DNA of 64,000 nucleotides from Negaprion brevirostris. Its lineage: Eukaryota. Of this stretch, positions 117-63,185 are shown piece after piece. The stretch is from contig JARDVH010000163.1 of NCBI GenBank assembly GCA_030324005.1, positions 79,688,225 through 79,752,224 on the forward strand, written 5' to 3'. Each line of letters starts with the position of its first letter. The first letter of the stretch is position 1. The notes below the pieces were generated by a model, which had not been told where the DNA came from, searched no databases, and saw only the letters and a list, made by a program, of their open reading frames with translations. The translations under genes were made by a program, and so were the position numbers.

Positions 117-2115
117 ATGTTTTCGAAGAGAGCAGCCCCAAGATTCATCAGGCCTTGCCAGCTTGATGTTGTGGAGGAGAGGCTTGAGTGCATGTTCCCC
201 AGTCACGTCCTTTGCCCAAGGGGTGCAGCCACCATGGCACTGTGGGAGGAGGTGACAGATGCCAGGAGTCTGACACTGCACTCTGGCCAACAGTGTGTTA
301 AAAAAAAGTATGATCTTCTTCCAGCAGCAAGAGCATGTGAGCATCCTACTTGGAAACCTGCACATGGTCGGCACGGATCTAAAACCATGCTTAGACACCT
401 GAAGGGCATGCAAGAAGTCCCCCTTCCCCCAGGAACAGAATCTAACCCCTTCCCCTCATGCCTCAACGAGCACCCCTCAGCGGTGACCCTTTTCCCTGAA
501 ACTGCCAACCCAAAGTCTGAGACGTAGGCACACATTGCACAACACGCACTTCAATATATTAATGCTTGCTATCCACCTTTTGTTCCCACAGGAGAAGCAT
601 TCGTAACCACTGCAAGATGGCACAGGCTGGCAGTGGTATCTCTGACCTGTGGCAGCCGACCAGCTTTGAACAGTGTGCCATGGAGCTGGCAGGCCGTGAT
701 AGGGCATCCAGAATGGTAACAGACAGCCAGGTCAGCGTCCAACATGCAAGTGAGCATCACCATAGCCATCAACCTAGGTCCTCCTCGAATTAAATGCATA
801 GAATGATTTACCTCCCTTCCCCTAATGTGTGTTTTTATTGTAGCCCTGGAGCCAGACGAACCCGGCCCTTTGGGTGTTGGTGCCTCCCCCCCTTCCCTAA
901 TATCATTCAGCAAACTCCCCATGACCCCCTGAATGACACCTCGGAGGAAAGCGCTGAAGAATCCTTTGAGGACAACACCAGTGATGTGGCACCAGCTTGT
1001 ACCACACAACCCACCGACACAAAGACTATCACCATGGTGGGTACCTTTAGTTTTGAGGCTTCTACGTCACTTATTGGTGAGCACATCACAGACACTGATG
1101 CACACCAGGTGGAGGCGGGCACATCCGAGAGCTCAGGCACACGGAGGGCTACCAGAGGCCAGGATTCAGCTGTCCCCAAGCCAGCTGCTGGACCTCCAGG
1201 TTCGTTCATCCCACGGCTGGTGGAGATGCATCAGCAAACCCAGGGAGTTGTGGATGGGCTGTCAGCAACTATGTTGCAACTGCAAGGCTGTTTAGAGGAG
1301 TCAAACAGAGTGCTGTTGCAGGCGGTGGTGCCAACACAGCGTGAGATCAAGGCCAACACTGGAAGGGTGGCGATCGCAGCGAAAAGATCCCTGGCTCAGT
1401 CTGTCCGGACCATCCTGGAGACACTATGGGCCACGAACAAAGGTGTTGCTGGCATCCATGCGGCACATTGCTCGGTGACCATGGCTGTCGGGGACATGCG
1501 GGAGACACTGCTGGCCATAGCTGGGGCTCTCGCTGGCATTCTGGAGACACAGCAGCCCGTGGCTGTGAGCAACTTTGCTCAGTATCAGAAGGCTACTGCT
1601 GAGGCACTCCAGAGCTTGGCTCGCTCACAGAATGCTGTAGTGGATGGACTCCAGAGCTTGGCCCAGTCTCAGAGCGCCAGGGCTAAGGGATCACAGATCA
1701 AGGGATAGATGCATCTGGGCCTCCAGGACTGACAGAACCAGACAACACCGGGGCTTCTGGAGTTTAGTCTAGCTACACTGGCATCCCATGAAGTGCCCCC
1801 AGGCCTCTGGGCATCCCAAAGGAGGAGGAAGGGCTTGAGCCCATGCTGAGGTCTTCCTCCCAGGAGATCCTGGATGTCCAGAGCCTTCCAATTCCCCCCT
1901 TCCTCACACTGGGGCATCTCAGGGCCAGCAAGATGAACACAGTGGCACCGAAACAGTACCATCCGCAAGCCAGCCGGGGCCCTCCAGGTCCTGGCCACTC
2001 AGAGGCATCACGGACAATGGGGCGTGCATCACAACTGGATACCTCCATCTCTGATTTGCATCCTGGGATAGTGTCAAGAAGAGGCAATAAGCCACATAAA
2101 ATTAGAAAGTTGTAG
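117..2115 (+). pseudogene. Harbinger Myb/SANT-like DNA-binding protein gene, spliced and degraded
   Basis: RAAPRF...LWEEV...QCVKKKYDL (Myb/SANT-like N-terminus), a second segment after acceptor cccacag at about 591 (MAQAGSG...FEQCAMELAG), and a long low-complexity/coiled-coil ORF at 794-1708. Frameshifts and stops are present. Confidence 0.7.
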
Positions 2116-2607: not shown

Positions 2608-3715
2608 GGGGAAGGGAGCTGCAATCAAGGCATCCCTCACTGCCCTTCCTTCCGGGACACCTACCATCGCCGCTCACCGTCTTTCCTCTGGCTCTTCATA
2701 TGGCAGGACATCCACCTTGCCCCCTCGTCCTGCTCCAGTTGGTCTCCCCCCTACTGGGCAATATAGTGCAGAAGCAGCAAACTATGATTATGTGTGAAGC
2801 AACACAGGGTCATACTGGAGAGTGGTCCAAACAGCGGAACCTCATCTTAAGCTGGCTGATGCGTCGCTTTATGATGGACTGGGTGGCTGCATGGGCCTCG
2901 TTGTAGCAGGTCTGAGGCCTCCACACAGGTATCATCAACCTTGACCTTAGCGGGTAACTCTTGATTGCCAGGAGCCATTCCTGAAGCCTGGACTGGTCTT
3001 CAAAGAGCCCGGGGATGTCCGACTACCTGAGGACAAAGCTGTCATGGACACTCCCTGGATGAGATGGCCATGTGTGATCGGCACATTCAGGGAGTGGAAC
3101 CCTTTCCTCTTCATAGATTTCTGTGGTTCTGCAGGTAGGGCCCTCAAGACGATGTGTGTTCTGTCCACTGCTCTCTGGACATTGGGAATCCCAGCAATGG
3201 CAGCAAAGCCTGGAGACTGAGCCTCCTGCTATGATTGGCCCACATTAAAGTTTACGTACTGCCCTGCCCAGGCATACTGGGCATCTGTGACTTGCTGCAC
3301 ACATCTGTGTACAGCGGCCTGGGAGATCCCACTCAGGTCACCACCATGTGCCTGAAATGACCCAGATACAAAAATATTCAGGACAGCCGTCACCTTCACA
3401 GGAAGCGGGTGGCCGCCCCTCCCCCAATGTGCCAGGTGTGTGAGCGCCTCACACAGGTGCCACACCATGGTCTTGGACTGGCAACAGCACATTTCCTCTG
3501 AGAGGGCCTTGAATGAATTGTGGGGCCTGTACCTCCTTGCCCTTGGCACCCTCTAGGGAGCCTGCTCACCCACCTCCTGACTCTCCTTCCTGAGGGACTG
3601 GTATTGGCTGATCTTGCAGTGGTCTCTCCACATCCACCACCTCCTGAGCCGCCTCACTCTCTTCTTCACCCGCCACCATAATGACCAGCTCCAAATCGAT
3701 CAGTCCAAGATCATC
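2608..3715 (-). pseudogene. Harbinger (HARBI1-like) DDE transposase, degraded
   Basis: Fragments VKVTAVLNIFVSGSFQ..GDLSGISQAAVHRCVQQVTDA, DRTHIVL..RKGFHSLNV, YNEAHAAT..LKMRFRCLD and C-terminal RDALIAA match Harbinger transposase motifs, broken by frameshifts and deletions. Confidence 0.85.
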
Positions 3716-6199
3716 TGCACAGTGAGCTTTGGAAAGAGCATAGAATGACAGATTAATGTCATTGGCTGCATAGACCCAGCACCACCCCAATCCCTCACTT
3801 GGGCCAGAATGCCCACTTGTGGGTACTGGCAACCCCACACAATCCATGGCACCATGGGTGGTCCATTTAAGGTTGTGTGAGATTCCCATCATAACAAATG
3901 CTGGTACAGATGATGCAGGTCGGTGTGCAGATGTGGGCAATGCGCAACCTTGAGCCATTGCAATTTGTGCAACTACAACATCTGTTACAGGCATGTGTTG
4001 CTGGACCGTGTCACGGGGCAGGGACAGTCTGCCAGATGTGTGCCCAGTAACAGCAGATTCCATGCAGTCCATGTCTGAACCTCTGCAACCTGGCCTGGAG
4101 CAGCAGCTGCTTCATCTGGTTAGGCCTCAGTCATCACATGGTACACTCCTCCCCCACCCTGGAACACCAGCACTTGGTAGAATCCCTGACCACACCCTGC
4201 AGCAAGACAGTGCCCTGGAGGGGAAGGCTGAGCAGGACTCCTTCAGGGACCCTCACCCAGAGAGCTCTGAGAAAATAGAAGGCCCCCCCCCCGCCACCGC
4301 CCCCGCCCCAGATATCAATTGTCCATCAGCCAGTACCNNNNNNNNNNNNNNNNNNNNNNNNNNNNNNNNNNNNNNNNNNNNNNNNNNNNNNNNNNNNNNN
4401 NNNNNNNNNNNNNNNNNNNNNNNNNNNNNNNNNNNNNNNNNNNNNNNNNNNNNNNNNNNNNNNNNNNNNNNNNNNNNNNNNNNNNNNNNNNNNNNNNNNN
4501 NNNNNNNNNNNNNNNNNNNNNNNNNNNNNNNNNNNNNNNNNNNNNNNNNNNNNNNNNNNNNNNNNNNNNNNNNNNNNNNNNNNNNNNNNNNNNNNNNNNN
4601 NNNNNNNNNNNNNNNNNNNNNNNNNNNNNNNNNNNNNNNNNNNNNNNNNNNNNNNNNNNNNNNNNNNNNNNNNNNNNNNNNNNNNNNNNNNNNNNNNNNN
4701 NNNNNNNNNNNNNNNNNNNNNNNNNNNNNNNNNNNNNNNNNNNNNNNNNNNNNNNNNNNNNNNNNNNNNNNNNNNNNNNNNNNNNNNNNNNNNNNNNNNN
4801 NNNNNNNNNNNNNNNNNNNNNNNNNNNNNNNNNNCCACCCCCACCGATCACCCCCTGGATTCCCACCCTAATTATGCTCCTGTCTCTTAGCATTGCCCCC
4901 TGCTTGGTGGGCAGTGCCAAGGTGCCCCCCTGGACATGGGCACTTTGCCCTTTGGGCAATGCCAAGGTGCCCCCCTGGACATGGGCACTTTGCCCTTTGG
5001 GCAATGCCAGCGACCCATGCCCTGGGGGCGTCCCCCAGTGCCCCAACAATATAATTTTTAAAATAATTTATGGGTCCTGCAGGCCTCCGATTGTCCCTCA
5101 CTTCAGTGGGGTTGGGCCATTAGTACCCTGAAAGTGGGGAGCTACTGTAAACTCTGCTAGAGTGAAACACGCTGGTGGGGTGCAAGAGGCTAACAGGCCC
5201 ACTAATGACATTTAAATCACACTTAAATAAAGATTTTAATCAATTTAGTATCTTCCTGCCAGTTTGCATTGCGGATCCGATGCCGCCAGAAATCTGGCAC
5301 TGAGTGTTTGTGGTGGGAACATATGTGCGAAACGTGTGCATGCCCGGCTGTATGGTTTTCCAACCCCGCTGCACTAGAAAATTAGCACAGCTGGGTGGGA
5401 GAATCACCCCCATTCTAACTGAGCCACTTGGCTTTGGGACCATGACCATTTCAGAACCATTTCACCATAAACAGTCACTATAGCATATATTTAATTTCAT
5501 CCTTCACTATGTCATAGAGTGGGTAAGGGACCAGCCTCGGTGTGAAGAGGAAGATTAGCTTAACATCAGTCCTTATGCTTTCCCAAGCCTGTAAGTAATC
5601 TTAGAAAGTTAGTCCTGAATGTGCTACTGTACTACTCATCAGCAATTTCATCAACATCGTGCTGCAGCTTCAATTTGAAACAAGCTTTCCTGCTTAATAA
5701 TTATGATTTTTGGTTTTGTATGCTGTACAGATATTCACTGATTCCTTTACGCTTGCATTTTAATTTGGTCAGATGTTGGCCAATGACATTCAGTGTAGTC
5801 CCACCTGGACCTTAGGACTGGGTGGATGAAAGCTGGAACGTAATGTGCATAATTCACTTTCCTTTTTCAGTTCAGATTGAAACACCTGCCTCTGGGTCTA
5901 AATTTGAACTCTGTGGGGTATCCATTTCAAATTTTCTGTTTCATATACTTTTCTGAAGAAAGTTATTACTTTATCCAAAGGTTCTCCTACTTCTTGAATA
6001 TGGTTGTACTTCATATATTTCCTTTCTTTTTGCAGGCAATACATGTTTTAGATTGGCAGATAATTTTAAAGGGTTCTAACTTCTCATAGTTTTTCCAATG
6101 CTGAGCTTGTTGTGAGCCTTCAGTACATCAGAAATATTCTAGAAGCGCCTCAGTGGATTCACCTAAGCTATTCAAGAATACAGTTTGTTTTCTTTTAAT

Positions 6200-15066: not shown

Positions 15067-17147
15067 CATCAAATTTTTCTTCTTTCCTTTAGCCTTATTC
15101 TAAGATTGTATCCTCTTACTTTTTCAGTGTTCTAAATAACTGTGATTAAAGCTGCCTCTTCAGACTGAAGAGGAAAGTGTGTAGGATATCTCACTTCTAT
15201 CCTTCAAAATCCAGCTCTTCCTTTTGCCTAATTTTACTTAAGCCTTTAAAATTAATGGAGAGTGTGTTGTGGGACCAAATGTCTGGCTGCCCTGTGGTTT
15301 GGGGGACACATCAAACCTGCTGAGTGCCTCTTGCTTGCTGGTTCACTTCCCCGCCCCCACAAGCGGTTATCTAAGACTGACCTCTGCTGGCAAACAGCAC
15401 CATGTTACCACAGAAAGAACTTCATTAGAAGCAATGACTCTGGCTACTAGCCCAGGGAAGGATCAAGTCATTTGTTCTTAAAGAGGGCTCTCAGGGACAT
15501 AAACACAGGGAAAATCGACTGGGCTCAGCGCCATCAGGCCTTCATCACTTTGTTCCATTTTCCCAGCTTCAAAAAGATGGGAATGATCCAGGACTGATTG
15601 TGAATGGTGGACATTTTCCACTTGTTCGTGAAAGCTGGTGTGCCTGGAGAATAATATGGAATCAGACAAGTGGTACTCCACGCCATTGTGAAAAGCACTG
15701 GGTGTGAGACGGCATTGTCACAAACACATTTAGAAAGGTCATAAACAGTTTTATTTAAGCAACCATCGCACTCGAGAAGAACATCCAAGACATGTGGTGA
15801 GGTGAAAAAATTCTTCAAAATGTTCAGCACCTTACACATAGCTTGAGTCAAATTAATGCAGTTCAAGTTTCGATCTGAATACTGTAGATGGTAGCTAGCT
15901 ATAGATTCCCGATCGGAATACTGTACTGCTGTTGTGAGCCCCTTTAGGGAAAGGTTTCAAAGGATCATGTGACCCCATTCAGCCAATTGGGCTGAAGTGT
16001 TTCAATCCTGGGCCTGAGCCCTGACTCCCCCAGTAATCCGGAGCATCTTTCTCACTTACTGTAAAGTTATATATCCTATTAATAAACAGTTCTTCATTTC
16101 TCCACTTGGTCATCACCAGTCTTTGCACAATATTACATTTACCTCAAGAAGGATATATTAGTGGGGCTGCAGGGCAGATTCACCATGACACATGGATTTA
16201 GAGTATTCAACTCTGCGGCCAGGTTTAATAAAGTTTTCTGATATCCCATTGAGCTTTGACATTTGAGGGCTGATCAGATCAAGGTGTTGTAAATGTTTGA
16301 AGGAATCGCTTGGGGAGATACTGTACAGGGAACTATTTCCTTTTAGAGGGGAAACAAAGCTGGTGGGGGCAGGGGTGCAGGGAAATTGGGGATATGGGGA
16401 ATCCCAGCCAAAGGGGCATCATCTCAATAGAATATTGCTGAAGAGAAGGACATGTCACTGAAACTTTTTGTTTTGCACTCTTCAGGACAAATGCAAGGAT
16501 GCCAAATTTCAAAGCATCACAAGAATTTATATGACAGGAAAACAGGGTGCTGATTGGTTGGCAAGTTGACACTGATTGACCGAGGTGTTGCCATGGAGAA
16601 TGCAATGAAGGATGATGAGTACTTCAAAAAAGACAGAAGGAACAAAGAACAAAGAACAAAGAANNNNNNNNNNNNNNNNNNNNNNNNNNNNNNNNNNNNN
16701 NNNNNNNNNNNNNNNNNNNNNNNNNNNNNNNNNNNNNNNNNNNNNNNNNNNNNNNNNNNNNNNTATTCCGGCCAAAATGCATCACCTCACATTTATCCGG
16801 ATTAAACTCCATTTGCCACCTATCTGCCCAATCAACCAGCGTATCAATATCCCAAACAAAAGGAAGCTGTTCCTTTTGTTTGCAGAGAAAGATTTCCTGT
16901 GCATGAATACATGTCACTGACAGTTAATGTAAATAAGTCACATGACAAACTCAACGTATTAAGCTAAAGTGGTTGATTGTGTAGGAGTAGGACACTCTTA
17001 AAATTAGAGTTGGGTCATTTAGGAGAAAACTGGGAAATACTTTGGAAGCACTTTTTCACTGAAAGGGTCATGGAAATCTAGAATCCCTTATCCAAAAGTC
17101 AATGGATGTTGTGGATCAATGGGAATTTTCATGACTTACGAGGAGAG

Positions 17148-21135: not shown

Positions 21136-21452
21136 GGGTGGCACAGTGGTGCAATGGTTAGCATGCTGCCTCGCAGCACCAGAGACCTGGATTCGATTCC
21201 AGCCTCGGATCACTGCCTGTGTGGAGTCTGCATGTTCTCCCCGTGTCTACATGGATTTCCTTTCGGTGCTTCAGTTTCCTACCACAGTCCAAAGATGTGC
21301 AGGTTATATGGATTGGCCATGCTAAACCTCTTCTAGTGTCAGGGGATTAGCAGGATAAATGTGTGGGGTTGCGGGAATAGGGCCTAGGTGGGATTGTGGT
21401 CGATACTTGATGGGCTCAATGGCCTCCTTCTGCACTGAAGGGGTTCTGTATT
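21136..21452 (+). mobile_element. HE1-type SINE
   Basis: gggtggcacagtggtgcaatggttagcatgctgcctcgcag head through the ggcctccttctgcactg tail. Confidence 0.85.
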
Positions 21453-22519
21453 ATGAGACAGACACCTCCCTATTAAATCCCAGCCCCTCCCTGTCCTCTT
21501 GGCTGCTCTCGCCCTGTAGCCTTCCTGATGTCTGTGTTCTGCAATTCTAGCCTCTGGCGTATCCTCCACTGTAGTTGCTGCTTCATGGGAGGCCGTGCCT
21601 TTAGGTGCTAAACTCTGGAATTTCCTCCATAAACCTCGCTGCCCCTCCTCCATTGACATGATCTTTAAGATTCACATTTTTTTGCCAGACATCATCCTTA
21701 TTATTTCTTTATGTCAATGTTTGCTAATGTCCTGGTCAAGATTCTTGGCACATTTTACCAAATGAAAGATTATATAAGTGTAAGTTGTGATTCAGGAATC
21801 GCCGAGCTTCCCTCACACTAATGGTGAAGATTGTGAGGAAGAGTTGACAGCCCAGCTGCCACGGAGGCAGTGAGTTTATATAATTGTTTCTCATTATTAA
21901 TGAATTTTTGCTGTGGTTCTTCATACCACATTAGCGTCTCCATCACCAAGCCAATGGAGACAGTTAACCAAGCATTAAAACTAACACTGAAGAGACACAG
22001 CAACATCAGTTTGATTTGATTTCTGCCAAGCGTTAAATTCTTTAATCCAAAACTAATGAAGTGTGTTTTTCCTTGTATCAATCATTTTGGACTATTCTGA
22101 GGAACAGTTATTCAGTAATAAGCTGAATTTTTTGTTTGCTTTTTCCATTGATGAATAAATCATCCATCAGACAGAGTCTTTCTGCATTCTCTCTCAGCTT
22201 AGTAATCAAGAAATAGAATAAGGCTTTCACTGCTGCTGGAGAATTTAGCCCAACGTGCCCAGCTGTAGGATATTTGGGATCAATTGGGCATAGTGCATCT
22301 TCAGGTGACCACCCTACATTGTACCACTCATGCCCAATCCAATAACAGATCCCTAACCCAGCAATGCCTGCCTGAACAACCCATAGGAATACGTCAGAAT
22401 CTTTTTAAAACTGATTTACAAATAACAGCAAACCCTGACTGCCTATGACATGGCAGGAGGCAATATTGGTCTGGCGCAGTTCCATTTTCATGCTGAATTC
22501 ACATGCTCCCATACACAGA

Positions 22520-23114
22520 CCAACCGGTACAGTCACACTCCCTCACATTCAGTTCAACCGGTACAGTCAAACTCCCTCACATTCAGATCAACCAGTACAG
22601 TCACACTCCCTCACATTCAGATCAACCGGTACAGTCACACTCCCTCACATTCAGTTCAACCGGTACAGTCAAACTCCCTCACATTCAATTCAGTGACTGC
22701 ACAGATTGAACTGAATGTGGGGGAGTGTGACTGTACAGATTGAGCTGAATCTGGGAGAGTGTGACTGTACAGACTGAACTGAATGTGGGACAGTGTGACT
22801 GTACAGATTGAGCTGAATGTGGGAGAGTGTGACTGTACAGATTGAACTGAATGTGGGGGCGTGTGACTGTACAGACTGAACTGAATGTGGGAGAGTGTGA
22901 CTGTACAGATTGAGCTGAATGCGGGAGAGTGTGACTGTTCAGATTGAACTGAATGTGGGAGAGTGTGACTGTTCAGATTGAACTGAATGTGGGAGAGTGT
23001 GACTGTACAGATTGAACTGAATGTGGGGGAGTGTGACTACAGATTGAGCTGAATGTGGGAGAGTGTGACTGTACAGATTGAACTGAATGTGGGGGCGTGT
23101 GACTGTACAGACTG
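22520..23114. repeat. 34-bp minisatellite with internal inversion
   Basis: About 5 units of caaccggtacagtcacactccctcacattcagtt, then about 12 reverse-complement-like units of cagattgaactgaatgtgggagagtgtgactgta running into a gap. Confidence 0.95.
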
Positions 23115-23214: not shown

Positions 23215-23455
23215 AAGGGTTGTGAATCTGTGGAATTCCCTGCCCAATGAAGCAATGAAGGCTACCTCGTTGAATGATTTTAAGGCAACGATATATAGAT
23301 TTTTGAACAGTAAAGGAATTAAGAGTTATGGTGAGTGGGCGGGTGAATGAAGCTGAAATCATGAAAAGATCAGCCATGATATTGAATGGTGGAGCAGGCT
23401 CAAGGGCCAGATGGCCTACTCCTGCTCTAGTTCTTATGTTATTATGTTCTTATGT
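23215..23455 (+). mobile_element. CR1 LINE 3' end
   Basis: RVVNLWNSLP motif, CR1 3' UTR and ttcttatgtt tail. Confidence 0.85.
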
Positions 23456-23478
23456 TGAGATTTGATGCTCTTGTGATA

Positions 23479-23514
23479 CTGTCCTGAGGAGTGCAAGACG
23501 AAAAGCTTCAACAG
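23479..23514 (+). ncRNA. Minimal type I hammerhead-ribozyme-like motif (Penelope-like repeat)
   Basis: ctgtc-CTGAGGA-gtgcaagac-GAAA-agct-TC-aacag: CUGANGA and GAAA boxes, UC cleavage site, helix I with one mismatch, and palindromic AGCT loop on helix III. Confidence 0.65.
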
Positions 23515-25239
23515 CATGCCTTTTGTTTTATTGAATATCAATAAGCCGCTATGATGGGCATTTGTTAGGCTTAATCCATTCACTTTCCAATACTGGACAA
23601 ACTATTAATCGTTGTTAGCAGTAGTGGGATTCCTTTTGCACCCTCCCTGGCTCAGATTTGCTAAAGCTGCTATAATGTTGCTGTTGCCACTCTGGAAGGT
23701 GTGTGTCTGTGTGGGGAGCATCCAATTATATAAAAGGAAGAAGGCATGAAAAATATCAAACCGGAAAGATGTCAGAATGTTTTGCAGGCTGTGAGATGTG
23801 ACTTTTCAGCTGGTTGCTATGAGGGAGATGTTTGAAATTCCAAATAAGGGTTGAATGCGTGAGGAGTGGGGTGAGAGGGACAATGAACGTTGACATCCAT
23901 GCTGTGCTGGAATAATTTCTCCAATTATTTTATGTGCGCGATTGCGATGAAAAGAAGGCCACGTCATAATACCGCCTGCATTGTTGCATTCTGCCTTGAT
24001 CTAAGTTCAAAGTAGATTAAAAATGAAGAGTTTTTAGATACTTTAGCCATGGGAATCCTTTCATCCAGGCGCTTGCTGGACTACTAGTAATTGTTGCTTT
24101 GCATTAACAAAGCAGAGAAAGGACAAAGGGTGGTGATCACTAGTGTAGGTCTAGCCTTTGAAACCTAAGCAGATCATGCATTATTGATGCTTGAGGCTAC
24201 TGGCAAGTACAAATGACTTTTCACCTGACTTTTTAGTGCCCGTTGTCTTGTCCAGTGGGCTGAATGACATTAATTCTAATGTGGGGTTTTTATCCTGGCT
24301 GAAGCTGATGGCTTTTAAAAATCACGAGCATATTTCCTGCTGTGTTCCTCACAGTAAGTCAGAAGATGAGCCATTTCGTAATGACAGAAGCAATATGGCA
24401 TGAGACGCACAACCCCTCGCACAAGGAGCACATTCATTGAAGTGGCTGCTGCGAATGTGTTATTTTGCATCTTTTAGTCTCGCTCTGTGCTTTCCCACTT
24501 CTCAGTAGTCTCTGCAGGGCCACTCAGCAAATAGTCATGAAGACACATGGCATCAGCCTGCCTCCGTCGCACTTTAGTTCTCTCTGTGTAGGGATGACTG
24601 CCCATACTTGCAAGCAGTCGTAGTAACAGAGTACAACAGTGAGTCTCACCATTTAGGGAATTGTGAATGTAAACCTACCAAATGACACCGTTGGGAGTTC
24701 CAGCACTATTCCATAAGGCTTACAGATAGCACTCTCTGCATTGCCAATGTTTAAAATGGTTATCTTGATACTAAACTAGCTCTTACTTCAAAGGTCGACA
24801 ATAAATTGAATTTCTGTCCTCAGCATTCACGAGACTTTATTTATATATGTAGTTGAATTCAGAAATACACCATCTCGCGTTAAACGGACGGAATTGATTG
24901 CGGCAGATATTAAATTCGTATGAATTTGAATGCTGGATTCTCTCGAGTAGTTAATGATGGAAACAAAGGAATATATGGGGTCAGAAAAGTTCACTGTAAC
25001 CATCTAACTGGATCCTATACTCTGTCAAATCTTTTTCTTTGACAGATTTATATGCAGTAACCCTAATCAGCCTGTACCATCTGCCTTAAGAGTCTGTTCC
25101 AGACATTTCCCACACTTGTTAAAGCAATCAAATTTAAAGCTGTTTTCAACATTATCTCAATGATAATATCTCTATCAGAGATTGACAGGTTATCCTCTTC
25201 CTGTGGAAGTATTACAATAGTAGATCACTAATTTTACTG

Positions 25240-26514: not shown

Positions 26515-26916
26515 TTGCAGGGTTGTTCTCCCTGGAACGATGGAGAATGAGGGGAGACCTAATAGAGGTGTACAAAATTGTGAAGGGTCTAGATAGGGTG
26601 AACAGTGGGAAGCTTTTTCCCAGGTCGGAGGTGACCATCACAAGGGGTCACAGATTCAAGGTGAGGGGGGCGAAGTTTAACTCAGATATCAGAGGGACAT
26701 TTTTTACACAGAGAGTGGTGGGGGCCTGGAATGCGCTGCCAAGTAGGGTGGTGGAGGCAGACACGCTGGGATCGTTTAAGACTTATCTGGATAGTCACAT
26801 GAGCAGACTGGGAATGGAGGGATACAAACGAATGGTCGAGTTGGCCCAATGACCGGCACAGGCTTGGAGGGCCGAAGGGCCTGTTTCCTGTGCTGTACTG
26901 TTCTTTGTTGTTCTTT
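26515..26916 (+). mobile_element. CR1 LINE 3' end, well preserved
   Basis: GLFSLERWRMRGDLIEVYKI..TRGHRFKVRG..FFTQRVVGAWNALP in an open frame, plus a gttcttt tail. Confidence 0.9.
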
Positions 26917-26959
26917 GAATGTGGGGGAGTGTGACTGTACAGATTGAACTGAATGTGAG

Positions 26960-27140
26960 GATATTGAATGGAGGGAAAGGTGAACCAGTCGTGAGGAAAA
27001 TTGTTCCATCAGGAGACTGAAAGGGGAAGGAAAGAACTGTTTGGTGGTGTTGGTATGATGCCGGAGGTTGTGGAAATGGTGGAGGATGATTTGCTGAATA
27101 TGGAGCCCAGTGAGGCAGAAGGTGAAGGGTAAAGGAACTG
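26960..27140 (-). mobile_element. Penelope-like element ORF remnant
   Basis: LHIQQIILHHFHNL..TTKQFFPSP resembles the region between RT and GIY-YIG in fish/shark Penelope-like ORFs (from recall). Confidence 0.5.
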
Positions 27141-27889
27141 TAAGCCTTTTTGGTGGGGAATGAAGGTACTGAGAATATCCATTAAAGGTGACAGTCAACA
27201 TTAGGTAAGTGGAGGCTGTTAAAGTGACAGAGAATGTCAGAAGAACTGAAGATGTTGGTTACAAGAAACTGAAAAAGGAGAGAAAACCTGGAGTTGGGAA
27301 AGGACTTGCATGGAGTATGACAAAGCTAAGCAGTCCTTTCCTTGGTTCTTACAAGAAATAGGCTCCGAGAGCTTGGAAATGTGGGGTCACAGGGGGTGAG
27401 ATCAGTGCAGCTCTGTGAAACGATGGCTTGCTGGAGGATGATGGGGTCATGGTCCTGCAGGATGTTGGAGGAGGGGTTGGAAAGTTGGTATTCAGCTACC
27501 TCCAAGCTGAACCTTATTTGTCAAACAACAAAAGTGCCGTTCTTAGCAGGGATAGTGACAATCTGAGGGTGGTAAAGGTGTAGTAAGAGCAGAAGATTGC
27601 AATGGCAGTTATCAATAAAAAGATCCATATGGTATGAAGGTGTTTGGGAACATAAGGGTTACTGTGGGACTGGGGAAATAGTGCCACCCACTTTATAATG
27701 CAGAGTATCACATGGGTGTAGCAGAGTGTAGCAGTGGGTCTGGGACAAGTTGGCATAAAGGTAACATCTAGTCAGAACTGTATCCTGTATTCATGTATAT
27801 ACTTATGAAAATTTAATAACAGTTATTGATCACCCATACAAGCTTCTAGACTTGTTCAAAAGGCAGTATAAAACCTTAAAACGATTGCA

Positions 27890-51819: not shown

Positions 51820-52628
51820 TGTGATGATACTGTGTCTTTAAGAAATATATTTATATCATGTTTCTTGTATGGGGTAGGTTTAAAATTCAACTCTGTTTTC
51901 TATGGTGCCGATTTGTCTACAAAATTAGCCAGTTGACAATGCAGGATAATGACAGATTTTGGCTAGGGATGTGTTTCTTTAAACAGAGTGAATGCATTTT
52001 TGTTTACTTAGGTACCTCTTAGGGTTTCAGAGTAGAGTTTTGATTGGGTTGATTGACAAGAGACAGTCATATGCTAATGGGATGAGCTAAACTTGCAGTG
52101 AAGATATACAGCTTCTCTTTTATTTTAAAACATCCAGTCAGTCTGTTCTGGCTGGACCTGAAAGAGGCAAGAGGTGTGTTTCAGTCTCTGTGGAGGCTGC
52201 TATTTGGGGCTGTCAGAAGACAGGTGTTGCTCTGCCTATCTTTTCAGAGGTGTTCAAATGGCTCTAAGACTGTTAACAAGTACAAGCACATAAGCTTGTG
52301 CATTGCTAACTGACTCTGAAGAGGAGTTTTTACATCTATAAGAAGAAAATTGGTCAAATTGGAATTCACAGGGACAGGTTAGCAGCTAAGAGCTGCACCT
52401 TGTCATGTTTAAGCATTGTTCAATTGGTAAACGTTAAGCTATTTCATTTGTTATAGTTAAACTGTATTGTTAAATAAAGTTTGTTTTGATAAAAGTTTCC
52501 TAGTGTGTCAATAGAATCACACCTGGAGTGAAACACTTTATCCTCACATTAATGCTAAAATAACAAATAGTTGGGGTCTAGTCTAACTTTATACTATATC
52601 TTGCGGTTTTTGATCTTGTACCCTAACA
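51820..52628 (+). mobile_element. Solo LTR (809 bp) with 5-bp target-site duplication
   Basis: Begins TG(tgatg) and ends (taa)CA, flanked by identical GTAGG at 51815-51819 and 52629-52633, with an internal AATAAA at about 52473. Confidence 0.8.
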
Positions 52629-53197
52629 GTAGGACGGAACTTGAGTATGGGCGGTGAGGCCTCCTCCATTTTATGGAAAATGGAGGTGGGTTGGTGAGAT
52701 GGCTGGAAGCTTCACTGCCCAATATTATCACTATTCTGTGCTGGCATTCACACCCCCCCACCCCCGATTGTGGGCAGGATTGCAGAGAAAGACTCCATCT
52801 CATATGAGGCCACAACCAGTCATTGAGAAAGGGAGCATTCAAAATGGCACTGCTAAAAAAGACACATGCTGTCGAAGCTTTTCAACTTGCACTCACCAGG
52901 ACAGAATTTTAAAAAATCAAATTTCAAAGGGAACAACAATTTTTGCTGCGTGAGAACAAGATGCTAGTTGATTGGTAGAAGCGTTGCCATGAAGAACGCA
53001 GTAGAAAATAGTTATCTCCCCTCCACCCAAGTTTTCGTTTAAAATCAAACCAGGCAGGTTGACTCAGATTTTTTGAGGCTTTGCCATGGGGGAATGTACC
53101 ATGGGGATGTGCTGAGAATTATGGTAACAACCAATTTAAGATTATCAGTCATCTTTGCAGTGTGGGTCACTTAACACTGCTAGAAGCCACTTATATT

Positions 53198-53516
53198 CAT
53201 AGAATGATAGAATCCCAACAGTGCGGAAGGAGGCCATTCAGCCCATCCAGCATGCACTGACCACAATCCCACCCAAGCCTCGTTCCCATAACCTCACGTA
53301 TTTACCCTGCTAATCTCCCTGACACCAAGGGGCAATTAGAATGGCCAATCAACCTAACATGCACACCGTCGGAAACCAGAGCACCCAGAGGAAACCTATG
53401 CAGACACGGGGAGAATGTGCAATCTCTACACAGACAGTGGCCCAAGCTGAGAATCAAACCCGGGTCCTTGGAGCCCTGAGGCAGTAATGCTAACTACTGA
53501 GCCATCATGTTGCCCC
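53198..53516 (-). mobile_element. HE1-type SINE
   Basis: Head, body and tail in reverse. Confidence 0.85.
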
Positions 53517-53787
53517 ACAGCATTCTCTTCTTTGCAAACAGGAAGAATATGCACCTTTTTTTAACCAACAGAAGCTTTGGAGACAACTTTTCTCTTGTGT
53601 ATTCCCCTTGGCAATGCCCCTACCAATCCAAGTCCACTTGCTAATCAATCAGTGCCCTTTTCTAGTGCTGTATAAATTGTTGTACCCTTTGAAATTTGGT
53701 ATTCTTGCATCTGTCCAGATGAGAACAAGATGAAAAGCTTCAACAGCCTCTCTCTTTTTTTTGGCAGTATTCAAGTTCTGTCCTACT

Positions 53788-54440
53788 CATACAAGATCAG
53801 AAACCCCAAGGTGTATGATGAAGTTAGACTAGACCCTATTCCAAATAATCTTTATTTAACAATACAGTTTAACTATACCAAATGAATTAGCTTAACGTTT
53901 ACCAACTGAATAATACTTAATGAGGTAAAAACCAGGCCGTCTATAAACAGCACAGCAAGCAACAAAAGCAGTGACAAAGGCAGCAACTTTTATGTCTTAA
54001 AATTGGAGCTACAACATAAGATCACAAAGCCTGTTTGTCTACAAATCTACCTGCATGGAAAGCTGATCTCTTATTTATAAGTCTACGAGCAACTAACTTC
54101 ATGACCTACTAGAACTTTACCTCTTCAAGGTTATTCTGCAACAACTTTGTTCTGTGACTTTTGTGAATACATTCACCTAGCTAAACTTTAAGAGTAGGAA
54201 GGAACCTCTTCTTCATTAGGCCTGGATTAAGACAAGCCAATCACTTCAGTTCTGAACTATTCCATTGTTTGTAAATTGTAAAAGTTCACTATCATCTTTA
54301 ACCGTATTTTCCTCAAATATGTGTGAGAATGAAAGTTCCTGTTTATTTGAACCCACGAAAAGCATGCCACTTTTTGCCCATGCATTTTCAGGGGTTAAGC
54401 AACACCCAGGTTTTCCTTTCCAAAGAATACACACATTATG
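53788..54440 (-). mobile_element. Second, inverted LTR-related copy
   Basis: 53788-53920 is the reverse complement of the 3' part of the 51820-52628 LTR (tacaagatca.aaacc.caag, aagttagactagaccc, tttatttaacaatacagtttaactata). The right boundary is approximate. Confidence 0.6.
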
Positions 54441-60307: not shown

Positions 60308-60447
60308 GGTCTGCTTGCTTCTTGATTTTCAGGGTTACTGTCTCCCCAGCCATCTGGAGCAAGTGGATGGCTTCGCTCAGTGGTTTGCCCTTAAGGCTCA
60401 CTGTGTTGATGGCTAATATCCTGTCCCCTATGTGAATGGCCCCTGTC
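60308..60447 (-). CDS. GRIP2: GRIP2 coding exon (PDZ6 C-terminal half)
   Basis: Hand translation [46 protein letters not shown] (absent from the ORF track). Acceptor ggtttttag, donor C|gtgagt, 140 nt, phase 2 to 1. Confidence 0.93.
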
Positions 60448-61257
60448 CTAAAAACCAGAATGAAAAATCAACCCAAAATCCACACCACAATTCACCCCAA
60501 CCTNNNNNNNTCAACAAACCATTGAGACTACACCTGCTACTTTCAAACATTAGTCTGTCGGGAGGATTTTCAAAGGCACAAATACATGCTGCATGGAAAG
60601 ACTGTCAGAGCCCAAAACAGGGATAGATATTACTGAAGAATGGCACATGTTGTTGAAACTTTTCATCTTAAATTCATCAGGTCAAAGTGCAAGAATTCCA
60701 AATTTAAAGGGAAGAACAATTTATACTTCATGAGACCAGTCAGTCAGCATTCTCTTATCGTGAAGTGTAAATTATTATTCTTGTCAAATTTGGTGTTCTT
60801 GTGAATTATCCTGGTGAGTGCAAGGCAAAAAGCTTCAACAATGTGTCCTTTCTGAGTAGATAGAATGTTCTCCATGGGCTTCCGAACATCAGGTGAAATG
60901 TGAGTCCCTCTACAGGGTGGCTGCTGCTGCACCATGTCAGGCTGGGAGGACCTCTGGGCCACCTTCAGGGAGCTAAACTGTCCCTTGCCATCCATAGGAA
61001 CCAGGAGGCCAATGAGAAAATCCCAGTCGGCCATTGTTGGTAGGTCTTAATCAGTTAAATCAAGTACCCACCACAAGTGGGGGAATAGCCCTGCCAACCC
61101 CCCATCCCCCAGTGCAAATATAGCCAGGGTATGGATTGAAGCTGGAAAATGGCACCCAGTGGCATAGGGCTCCTAACCCCCACCCCCCCAATACTAACCC
61201 TGGTGGGATCTAAGAATCAAGCCTCGTGAATAGTAGTAGTGGTCCCTGTTTACAACG

Positions 61258-62710: not shown

Positions 62711-63185
62711 GTGTAGAGGGAGTTTTATTCTGGATCTAACCCCGTGCTATACCTGTCCTGAGAGTGTTTGATAGGAAGAGTGTAGAGGGAGTTTTACTCT
62801 GTATCTAACCCCGTGCTGTATGTCCCCCGGGAGTGTCTGATGGGGACACTGTACGGGGGAGCTTTACTCTATATCTAATCCCATGCTGTATCAATGCTTA
62901 GAGTGTTTGACGGGGACAGTGTACAGGAGAGCTTTACTCTGTATCTAACCCCGTGCTTAGCTGTCCTGGAAATGTTGATGGGGACAGAGTACGGGGGAGC
63001 TTTACTCTATGTCTAACCCCATACTGTACCTGTGATGAAAGTGTTGATGGGGATAATGTACAGGAGAGCTTTACTTTGTATCTAACTCCTTGCTATACCT
63101 GTGCTGTGAGTGTTTGATGCGGACAGTATTGAGGGAGCTTTACTCTATATCTAACCCCGTGCTGTACCTGTCCTGGGAATGTTTG
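62711..63185 (+). repeat. ~69-bp tandem repeat, about 7 diverged units
   Basis: Unit gtgtagagggagctttactctgtatctaaccccgtgctgtacctgtcctgggagtgtttgatggggaca recurs at 62711, 62780, 62849 and onward. Confidence 0.92.

Follow-up and report, generated by a model that had tools for sequence, protein, structure and literature searches.

Six decayed hammerhead-like motifs in Negaprion brevirostris, probably the 3' ends of a Penelope-like retrotransposon family

A 36-nt motif resembling a minimal hammerhead ribozyme recurs in a 64-kb stretch of Negaprion brevirostris DNA (the window, meaning the whole 64,000 nt analysed), and we asked what kind of element left these copies behind and whether any of them still has the make-up of a ribozyme. 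The initial annotation had read them as a non-autonomous, ribozyme-bearing retroelement family with the minimal type I hammerhead of Penelope-like elements (PLEs).

Extent and arrangement of the repeat

All six motifs were confirmed at the coordinates and strands given below. Every copy has at least one defect (6/6), as had been noted, and the copy at 23479 is the best of them; its predicted cut site, C17, falls at 23509 as claimed.

23479..23514, plus strand: hammerhead motif copy; core boxes intact, C2.1-A1.1 mismatch, predicted cut after 23509
16455..16490, minus strand: hammerhead motif copy; G12 changed to A, weak helix I, 10 differences from the consensus
52869..52904, minus strand: hammerhead motif copy; helix I intact, A6 changed to G, U-U in helix II
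53711..53746, plus strand: hammerhead motif copy; U4 changed to A, A-A in helix II, mismatch at 1.1
60650..60685, minus strand: hammerhead motif copy; core boxes intact, two helix I mismatches, 9 differences
60806..60841, plus strand: hammerhead motif copy; A6 changed to G, G12 changed to A, two helix I mismatches

Each copy, extended by 60 nt per side, recovered the other five by nhmmer (E-values 8e-4 to 2e-12), and these reciprocal matches show that the repeat is not a product of chance. A profile of all six copies gave no seventh copy in the 64-kb window below an E-value of 2.7, and scans with the family patterns gave 0 matches in viral contigs, metagenomes and prokaryote genomes.

The 36-nt unit described initially is real, and the whole repeat is larger: it spans 75-210 nt, of which the motif is the 3' part. 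Homology between copies reaches up to 135 nt upstream of the motif start and about 50-75 nt beyond it, with no more than 135 nt upstream in 5/6 copies. The 5' ends are staggered and the 3' end is fixed. Four modules were delimited as follows.

23455..23529, plus strand: repeat module around the 23479 motif; 5' side cut by a dispersed repeat at 23215-23453
16427..16606, minus strand: repeat module of the 16455 motif; two CCAAT boxes and a TATA-like box upstream
52855..53024, minus strand: repeat module of the 52869 motif; inverted arm of the insertion at 53711
53574..53786, plus strand: longest repeat module; CCAAT-type boxes at -88 and -66, TATAAA at -41, the motif and a tail of ~40 nt

The TATA-like box at -41/-42 relative to helix I is clear in three of the six copies, degenerate in two and absent from the truncated 23479 copy, and CCAAT-type boxes lie upstream of helix I in the three longest copies. 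A weak additional promoter-like piece was found beyond the 52869 module (53054-53101, E-values 0.06-0.27). The copies occupy four insertion sites, two of which hold head-to-head inverted pairs: 60650 (minus) with 60806 (plus), joined near 60745, and 52869 (minus) with 53711 (plus). Since the members of both close pairs lie on opposite strands, they cannot serve as each other's partner within one transcript. No head-to-tail tandem units of the repeat occur within the 64-kb window.

Close to the predicted transcription start, ~20 nt before helix I, stands a second short palindrome, AAATTT (53688-53694 and equivalents), with a G in front of it in most copies; few parts of the module are as well conserved. 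At the larger pair, both arms run on into the same second repeat (52401-52650, minus, and 53768-53929, plus; 78-90% alike), and the tail of the 52869 arm is broken by a stretch of ~200 nt. This second repeat is abundant by itself among the public-run contigs described below, few of which span 53788; its presence in both arms may mean that a 3' flank was carried along or that the locus underwent a local inverted duplication.

The consensus as a hammerhead and the decay of its copies

A consensus was computed by column majority combined with a CpG rule for sites with CG, TG and CA states, and it reproduced the earlier by-eye consensus exactly; the plain column majority of the six copies at position 1.1 is A, not G. 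It contains the core positions C3-A9, G12-A15.1, U16.1 and H17 in order. The palindrome is AAGCUU in 4/6 copies and the wobble-compatible AAGUUU in 2/6, with a computed energy of -4.3 kcal/mol for the self-pairing AAGCUU duplex, and the 10.1-11.1 pair is G-C in three copies, G-U in two and A-U in one. A generic type I descriptor (4/5 helix I pairs) matched the window once (23484), while 60 Markov shuffles averaged 0.1 matches. Under the named structure, itself derived from the consensus, 79% of cells are paired, compared with 28-47% in slid controls. The hammerhead fold of the consensus has an energy of -2.9 kcal/mol and the minimum-energy fold -4.5. The 64-kb window yielded no hammerhead with a long helix II from any other family.

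Two checks proposed at the outset gave the motif no support. No hammerhead family was among the six Rfam matches in the window at E ≤ 10, and covariation in helix I did not exceed that of shuffles, 140 of 500 of which reached the score of the six copies; the terminal helix I pair shows one C-G/U-A swap (three versus three copies). All core positions are retained in 2/6 copies only (23479 and 60650), both without the pair next to the cut site, and the closing helix I pair, 2.1-1.1, is present in 1/6. No copy is intact (0/6), and a descriptor relaxed to admit the consensus accepted none of the six. The identification as a minimal dimer-type type I hammerhead is supported for the consensus, in which U4 and helix II position 10.2 are restored and AAGCUU self-pairs.

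Of the CpG sites, 10/12 have decayed. CpG bases differ from the consensus in 10/24 cells, compared with 26/192 elsewhere (p=0.002), and such an excess is a mark of old, methylated, neutrally decaying DNA. Non-CpG core positions were changed in 3/60 cells versus 23/132 at other non-CpG positions (p=0.02; p=0.08 when the terminal helix I pair was left out), and this lower core variation may be a weak sign of selection in the source lineages. The six copies themselves are most likely inactive relics.

For a view of the whole family, contigs of 4/22 listed sequencing runs (4 studies, not on record as RNA) were aligned to 53530-53880 at 80% likeness. The number of contigs aligned per run was 2,745-4,022, which includes those of the second repeat at 53790-53880, and their depth does not equal copy number. 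The repeat was abundant in 4/4 runs; hammerheads at PLE ends are known to number thousands per fish or amphibian genome. Summed depth peaked over the 5' half of the motif, fell stepwise upstream and dropped sharply after about 53760: in one run (X1) it was 24,783 at 53698-53709, 1,017 at 53650-61 and 22 at 53578-89, an upstream fall that is confounded because the reference copy is itself divergent, while downstream, at 53770-81, it was 204. Opposite-strand joints inside the module made up 9 of the 15 joints listed.

Majority letters restored U4 (94-96% of depth) and helix II position 10.2 (91-96%) in 4/4 runs, and the loop G with 67-73%. The terminal helix I pair varied among contigs, with T in 36-40% on the 5' side and A in 13-15% on the 3' side. 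G1.1 was a minority letter (17-23% of contig depth), which counts against the closing pair; because of this, and because covariation was not above shuffles, pair 2.1-1.1 rests on the CpG-decay argument. C11.1 was absent among the 40 majority changes listed of 49, which likewise counts against the hammerhead consensus. Clipped contig ends read C-A at 11.1/12 (run X2) and T-G at 17/1.1 (runs X1, X6 and X10), complementary decay forms that fit CpG decay together with bias towards the reference copy.

Helix II and its pairing 5' flank

Helix II of the consensus has two base pairs, and G10.1 follows A9 directly, with no unpaired base. For these two reasons the published descriptor of minimal PLE hammerheads had 0 matches on the consensus, the six copies and the whole window. 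The PLE hammerheads of Cervera and De la Pena (2014, PMC4209133), which lie in the pLTRs of metazoan PLEs, share with the consensus the type I topology, the CUGANGA/GAAA/UH core, the G10.1-C11.1 pair, a short helix I and a palindromic helix III, and the shrimp and rotifer examples in that article also have a 4-nt palindromic insert in helix III. They differ in helix II (3-7 bp by definition, at least 3 bp in the descriptor, typically 4-8), in having an unpaired base after A9 and in a 3' box of 8-9 nt, against 10 nt here; the present consensus also has an upstream segment able to pair with loop II. As it departs from the 2014 definition in two features, we class it as a variant. The earlier reading as the minimal PLE hammerhead is modified to this extent: given the 2-bp helix II and the descriptor result, the motif is not the standard PLE form. 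None of the examined rows of the Fig S3 alignment in PMC4209133 is from a cartilaginous fish.

The upstream segment is the following.

53703..53709, plus strand: 5' flank segment complementary to consensus helix II and loop II through 7 Watson-Crick pairs; a candidate strand for a pseudoknot or for a competing hairpin

Seven Watson-Crick pairs were reached by 0.2% of 20,000 random window 14-mers, for a segment picked post hoc, and seven pairs counting G-U by 1.3%. Five of the flank pairs could coexist with helix II in a pseudoknot; their cells are paired in 80%, with no two-sided change. When the consensus was folded with its 5' flank, the minimum-energy structure was the competing hairpin (-10.5 kcal/mol versus -3.0 for the hammerhead, the latter without a pseudoknot term). 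A permuted core using the upstream segment as the true helix II strand was rejected by eye, as no GAAA follows the segment.

Two published systems come close to parts of this arrangement. The pseudoknotted hammerheads of Perreault et al. (2011, PMC3088659), with a stem II of 1-2 bp, and the human C10orf118 hammerhead have a similarly short stem II and resemble our consensus in a possible pseudoknot of 5 Watson-Crick pairs that reaches the stem I side; they were tested and found active, whereas here the pseudoknot is a candidate and comes together with a helix III of the dimer type. Axolotl HHR_Amex1 (Cervera and de la Pena 2020, PMC7229834) shares the one-pair helix III, the palindromic tetraloop and the need for a dimer, and differs in its tandem arrays and longer helix II; the canonical loop 1-loop 2 contacts are not evident in our consensus. 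The motif strings of the family were absent from 11 supplementary files of PMC3088659, and a literature search for shark PLE hammerheads gave no relevant match, the strings being absent from the full texts and two supplements searched. Short-stem hammerhead variants may reportedly have been described already by Lunse et al. in 2017.

Several of these results would also be expected if the motif had never been a working ribozyme, either as a chance look-alike in a retroelement 3' end or because it was degenerate already in the master element, with its 2-bp helix II sequestered by the upstream segment. The Rfam and published-descriptor searches were negative, covariation gave no signal, the minimum-energy fold with the flank pairs the upstream segment with helix II, and an Anolis PLE with a mutated hammerhead inserted unimpaired in vitro (Frangieh et al. 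2024, PMC11167929), which means that cleavage can be under weak selection. This explanation has to set aside that all 11 core positions, H17, the 5-bp helix I, G10.1-C11.1 and the 6-nt palindrome stand in the right order within one 36-mer, and that pseudoknotted hammerheads with stems II of 1-2 bp are active elsewhere (PMC3088659); we regard it as quite improbable.

A bolder reading, which we offer tentatively and think more doubtful than probable, is that a high-copy PLE family carries a hammerhead missed by the descriptor, in which a dimer-type helix III and a 2-bp helix II are combined with a 5' strand that either clamps loop II as a 5-bp pseudoknot, giving faster cleavage than in standard PLE hammerheads, or draws helix II into an OFF-state hairpin of 7-8 bp. 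Such a hairpin could act as a built-in switch set by transcript start, as the 5' strand lies just downstream of the predicted start. If the 2-bp form cleaves, descriptor-based surveys undercount vertebrate hammerheads, and the family would let one ask, in a natural setting, what makes PLE hammerheads slow in vitro and whether a Watson-Crick tertiary contact can remedy it. The 2-bp helix II with its pairable 5' strand is the one point of value in this family, which is otherwise ordinary.

Origin of the family and its surroundings in the window

The larger inverted pair holds, in order on the plus strand, the inverted arm, 33 open codons, a SINE-like insertion and the 3' module.

53102..53200, plus strand: stretch of 33 codons without a stop, similar to the C-terminal helix region of a PLE GIY-YIG endonuclease; same-strand, upstream of the 53711 motif, lead-level
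53199..53517, minus strand: SINE-like dispersed repeat, inserted between the endonuclease-like stretch and the 3' module; many copies in the window

We had taken 53102-53200 to be the end of a PLE GIY-YIG domain, a guess made before any search. The nearest annotated atlas clusters of the 33-codon stretch are eukaryotic GIY-YIG (scores 0.78-0.79, where values under 0.9 count as leads only; 15% of their members carry PF01541), and by eye the stretch fits the F-x-I...L...E-A-x-x-I pattern in Fig S2 of Craig (2021, PMC8557442). A regex scan of the window with five PLE peptide motifs matched only at 53177. The stretch had 0 matches among 1.84 billion proteins (E ≤ 0.001) and no Pfam match at E ≤ 10, and word-index searches were also blank. 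Almost no contigs reach 53530-53577, save single, probably orthologous ones, and the link between the module and an ORF remnant therefore rests on one locus. No reverse transcriptase (RT) or full element of the hammerhead-bearing family was seen in the 64-kb window.

The arrangement of the copies also has PLE parallels. The hammerheads in PMC4209133 are mostly single dispersed copies, with dual opposite-strand motifs 100-700 bp apart, and our copies are likewise dispersed, with opposite-strand pairs within 700 bp. An inverted 5'-truncated copy accompanies PLE insertions (PMC8557442), and a tail of 30-40 bp is a PLE signature (PMC11167929, PMC8557442). An AUG lies within the hammerhead core, in a frame that is similar across copies for ~11 codons. 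In the Anolis Poseidon element PAc the ORF begins at stem II; PAc thus resembles the present family in its pLTR hammerhead, an ORF start inside the motif and a short tail, and differs as an intact, tested element from a shark family seen without RT (PMC11167929). On these sequence features a PLE origin appears likely, and we consider it probable that the six motifs mark decayed pseudo-LTR modules, the 3' ends left by a single Penelope-like retrotransposon family.

What was observed is a repeat with its consensus, inverted pairs, a fixed 3' end, promoter-like boxes and decay at CpG sites; PLE origin, promoter use and dimer cleavage are what we infer. The active ancestor would have had a module with a Pol II promoter (two CCAAT boxes, and TATA ~41 nt before helix I) followed by the minimal type I hammerhead. 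Two copies in one tandem transcript could have paired their AAGCUU palindromes into a 6-bp helix III, with cleavage after UC (C17), presumably at a low rate, as in other PLE min-HHRs. Reverse transcription would have started ~30-40 nt past the cut site, and frequent early stops together with strand inversion would have left short 5'-truncated and head-to-head copies.

The dispersed family posited by the initial annotation is borne out, and its qualification as non-autonomous is not needed, truncated ends of autonomous PLEs fitting equally well or better. A short non-autonomous element (pLTR-only, SINE-like or a retrozyme monomer) that supplied its own promoter and hammerhead but relied on a PLE for mobilisation in trans would explain why 5/6 copies have at most 135 nt of upstream homology and why the module bears its own promoter-like boxes. 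Its helix III, one pair with a palindromic tetraloop, would equal that of axolotl HHR_Amex1 (PMC7229834), and pLTRs are the source of animal retrozymes according to Li et al. (2026, 10.64898/2026.07.22.740005), who found retrozymes as well as solo monomers in vertebrates, one chondrichthyan among them. Such an element is nevertheless at odds with the staggered 5' ends, which would be fixed, with the endonuclease-like remnant upstream of one copy and with the lack, in the window, of head-to-tail tandems, the defining trait of non-LTR retrozymes. We judge it unlikely as the explanation for the family; 5'-truncated PLE ends fit the anatomy at least as well.

A decayed stretch lies at 26960-27600 (minus strand), which we take to resemble the RT-thumb/linker region of a different PLE family; searched against proteins, 26962-27258 (minus) returned 103 candidates, none at E ≤ 0.1.

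Some of the copies lie within a host gene.

60309..60449, minus strand: PDZ-coding exon of a GRIP-family host gene
33500-63600, minus strand: GRIP-family PDZ gene; best PDB match GRIP, E-value 4e-23; exons near 63.5, 62.4, 60.4, 47.4, 36.1 and 33.5 kb

PDZ was the only Pfam domain found in 11 stop-free ORFs of the window. Four hammerhead copies are intronic in this gene and two lie beyond the last exon found. Among them, the minus-strand copy at 60650 has the orientation of the pre-mRNA and both core boxes intact, with an exon ~200 nt downstream of it, and near-identical contigs (3-6 differences over 143-185 nt) suggest that the 53711 locus may be common to three other runs. Both observations would suit a scenario in which the GRIP-family gene co-opted one or more copies as an intronic ribozyme, comparable to the RECK and C10orf118 hammerheads of amniotes. 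The 60650 copy, however, carries 9 differences, two helix I mismatches among them, folds as a hammerhead with an energy of +6.8 kcal/mol, and has neither a stable helix III nor a same-strand partner nearby, while the best copy, 23479, is on the plus strand outside the exons found. Co-option is accordingly very improbable.

Other repeats and frames were noted in the window. A 304-codon stop-free frame at 794-1708 (plus strand) had no Pfam match at E ≤ 0.01. A 34-nt tandem repeat occupies 22499-23111, with a strand switch near 22693 that makes a long inverted array beside an assembly gap, and has a further unit at 26916-26960; because of this repeat, the Rfam matches to MIR6440 and mir-3145 are spurious. 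The SINE-like family of ~320 nt (21146-21447, 53199-53517 and others) has a weak tRNA match at its head and at least 10 copies in the window, with 67-83% identity. About six copies of a 69-70 nt tandem repeat lie at 62720-63185, in an intron of the GRIP-family gene.
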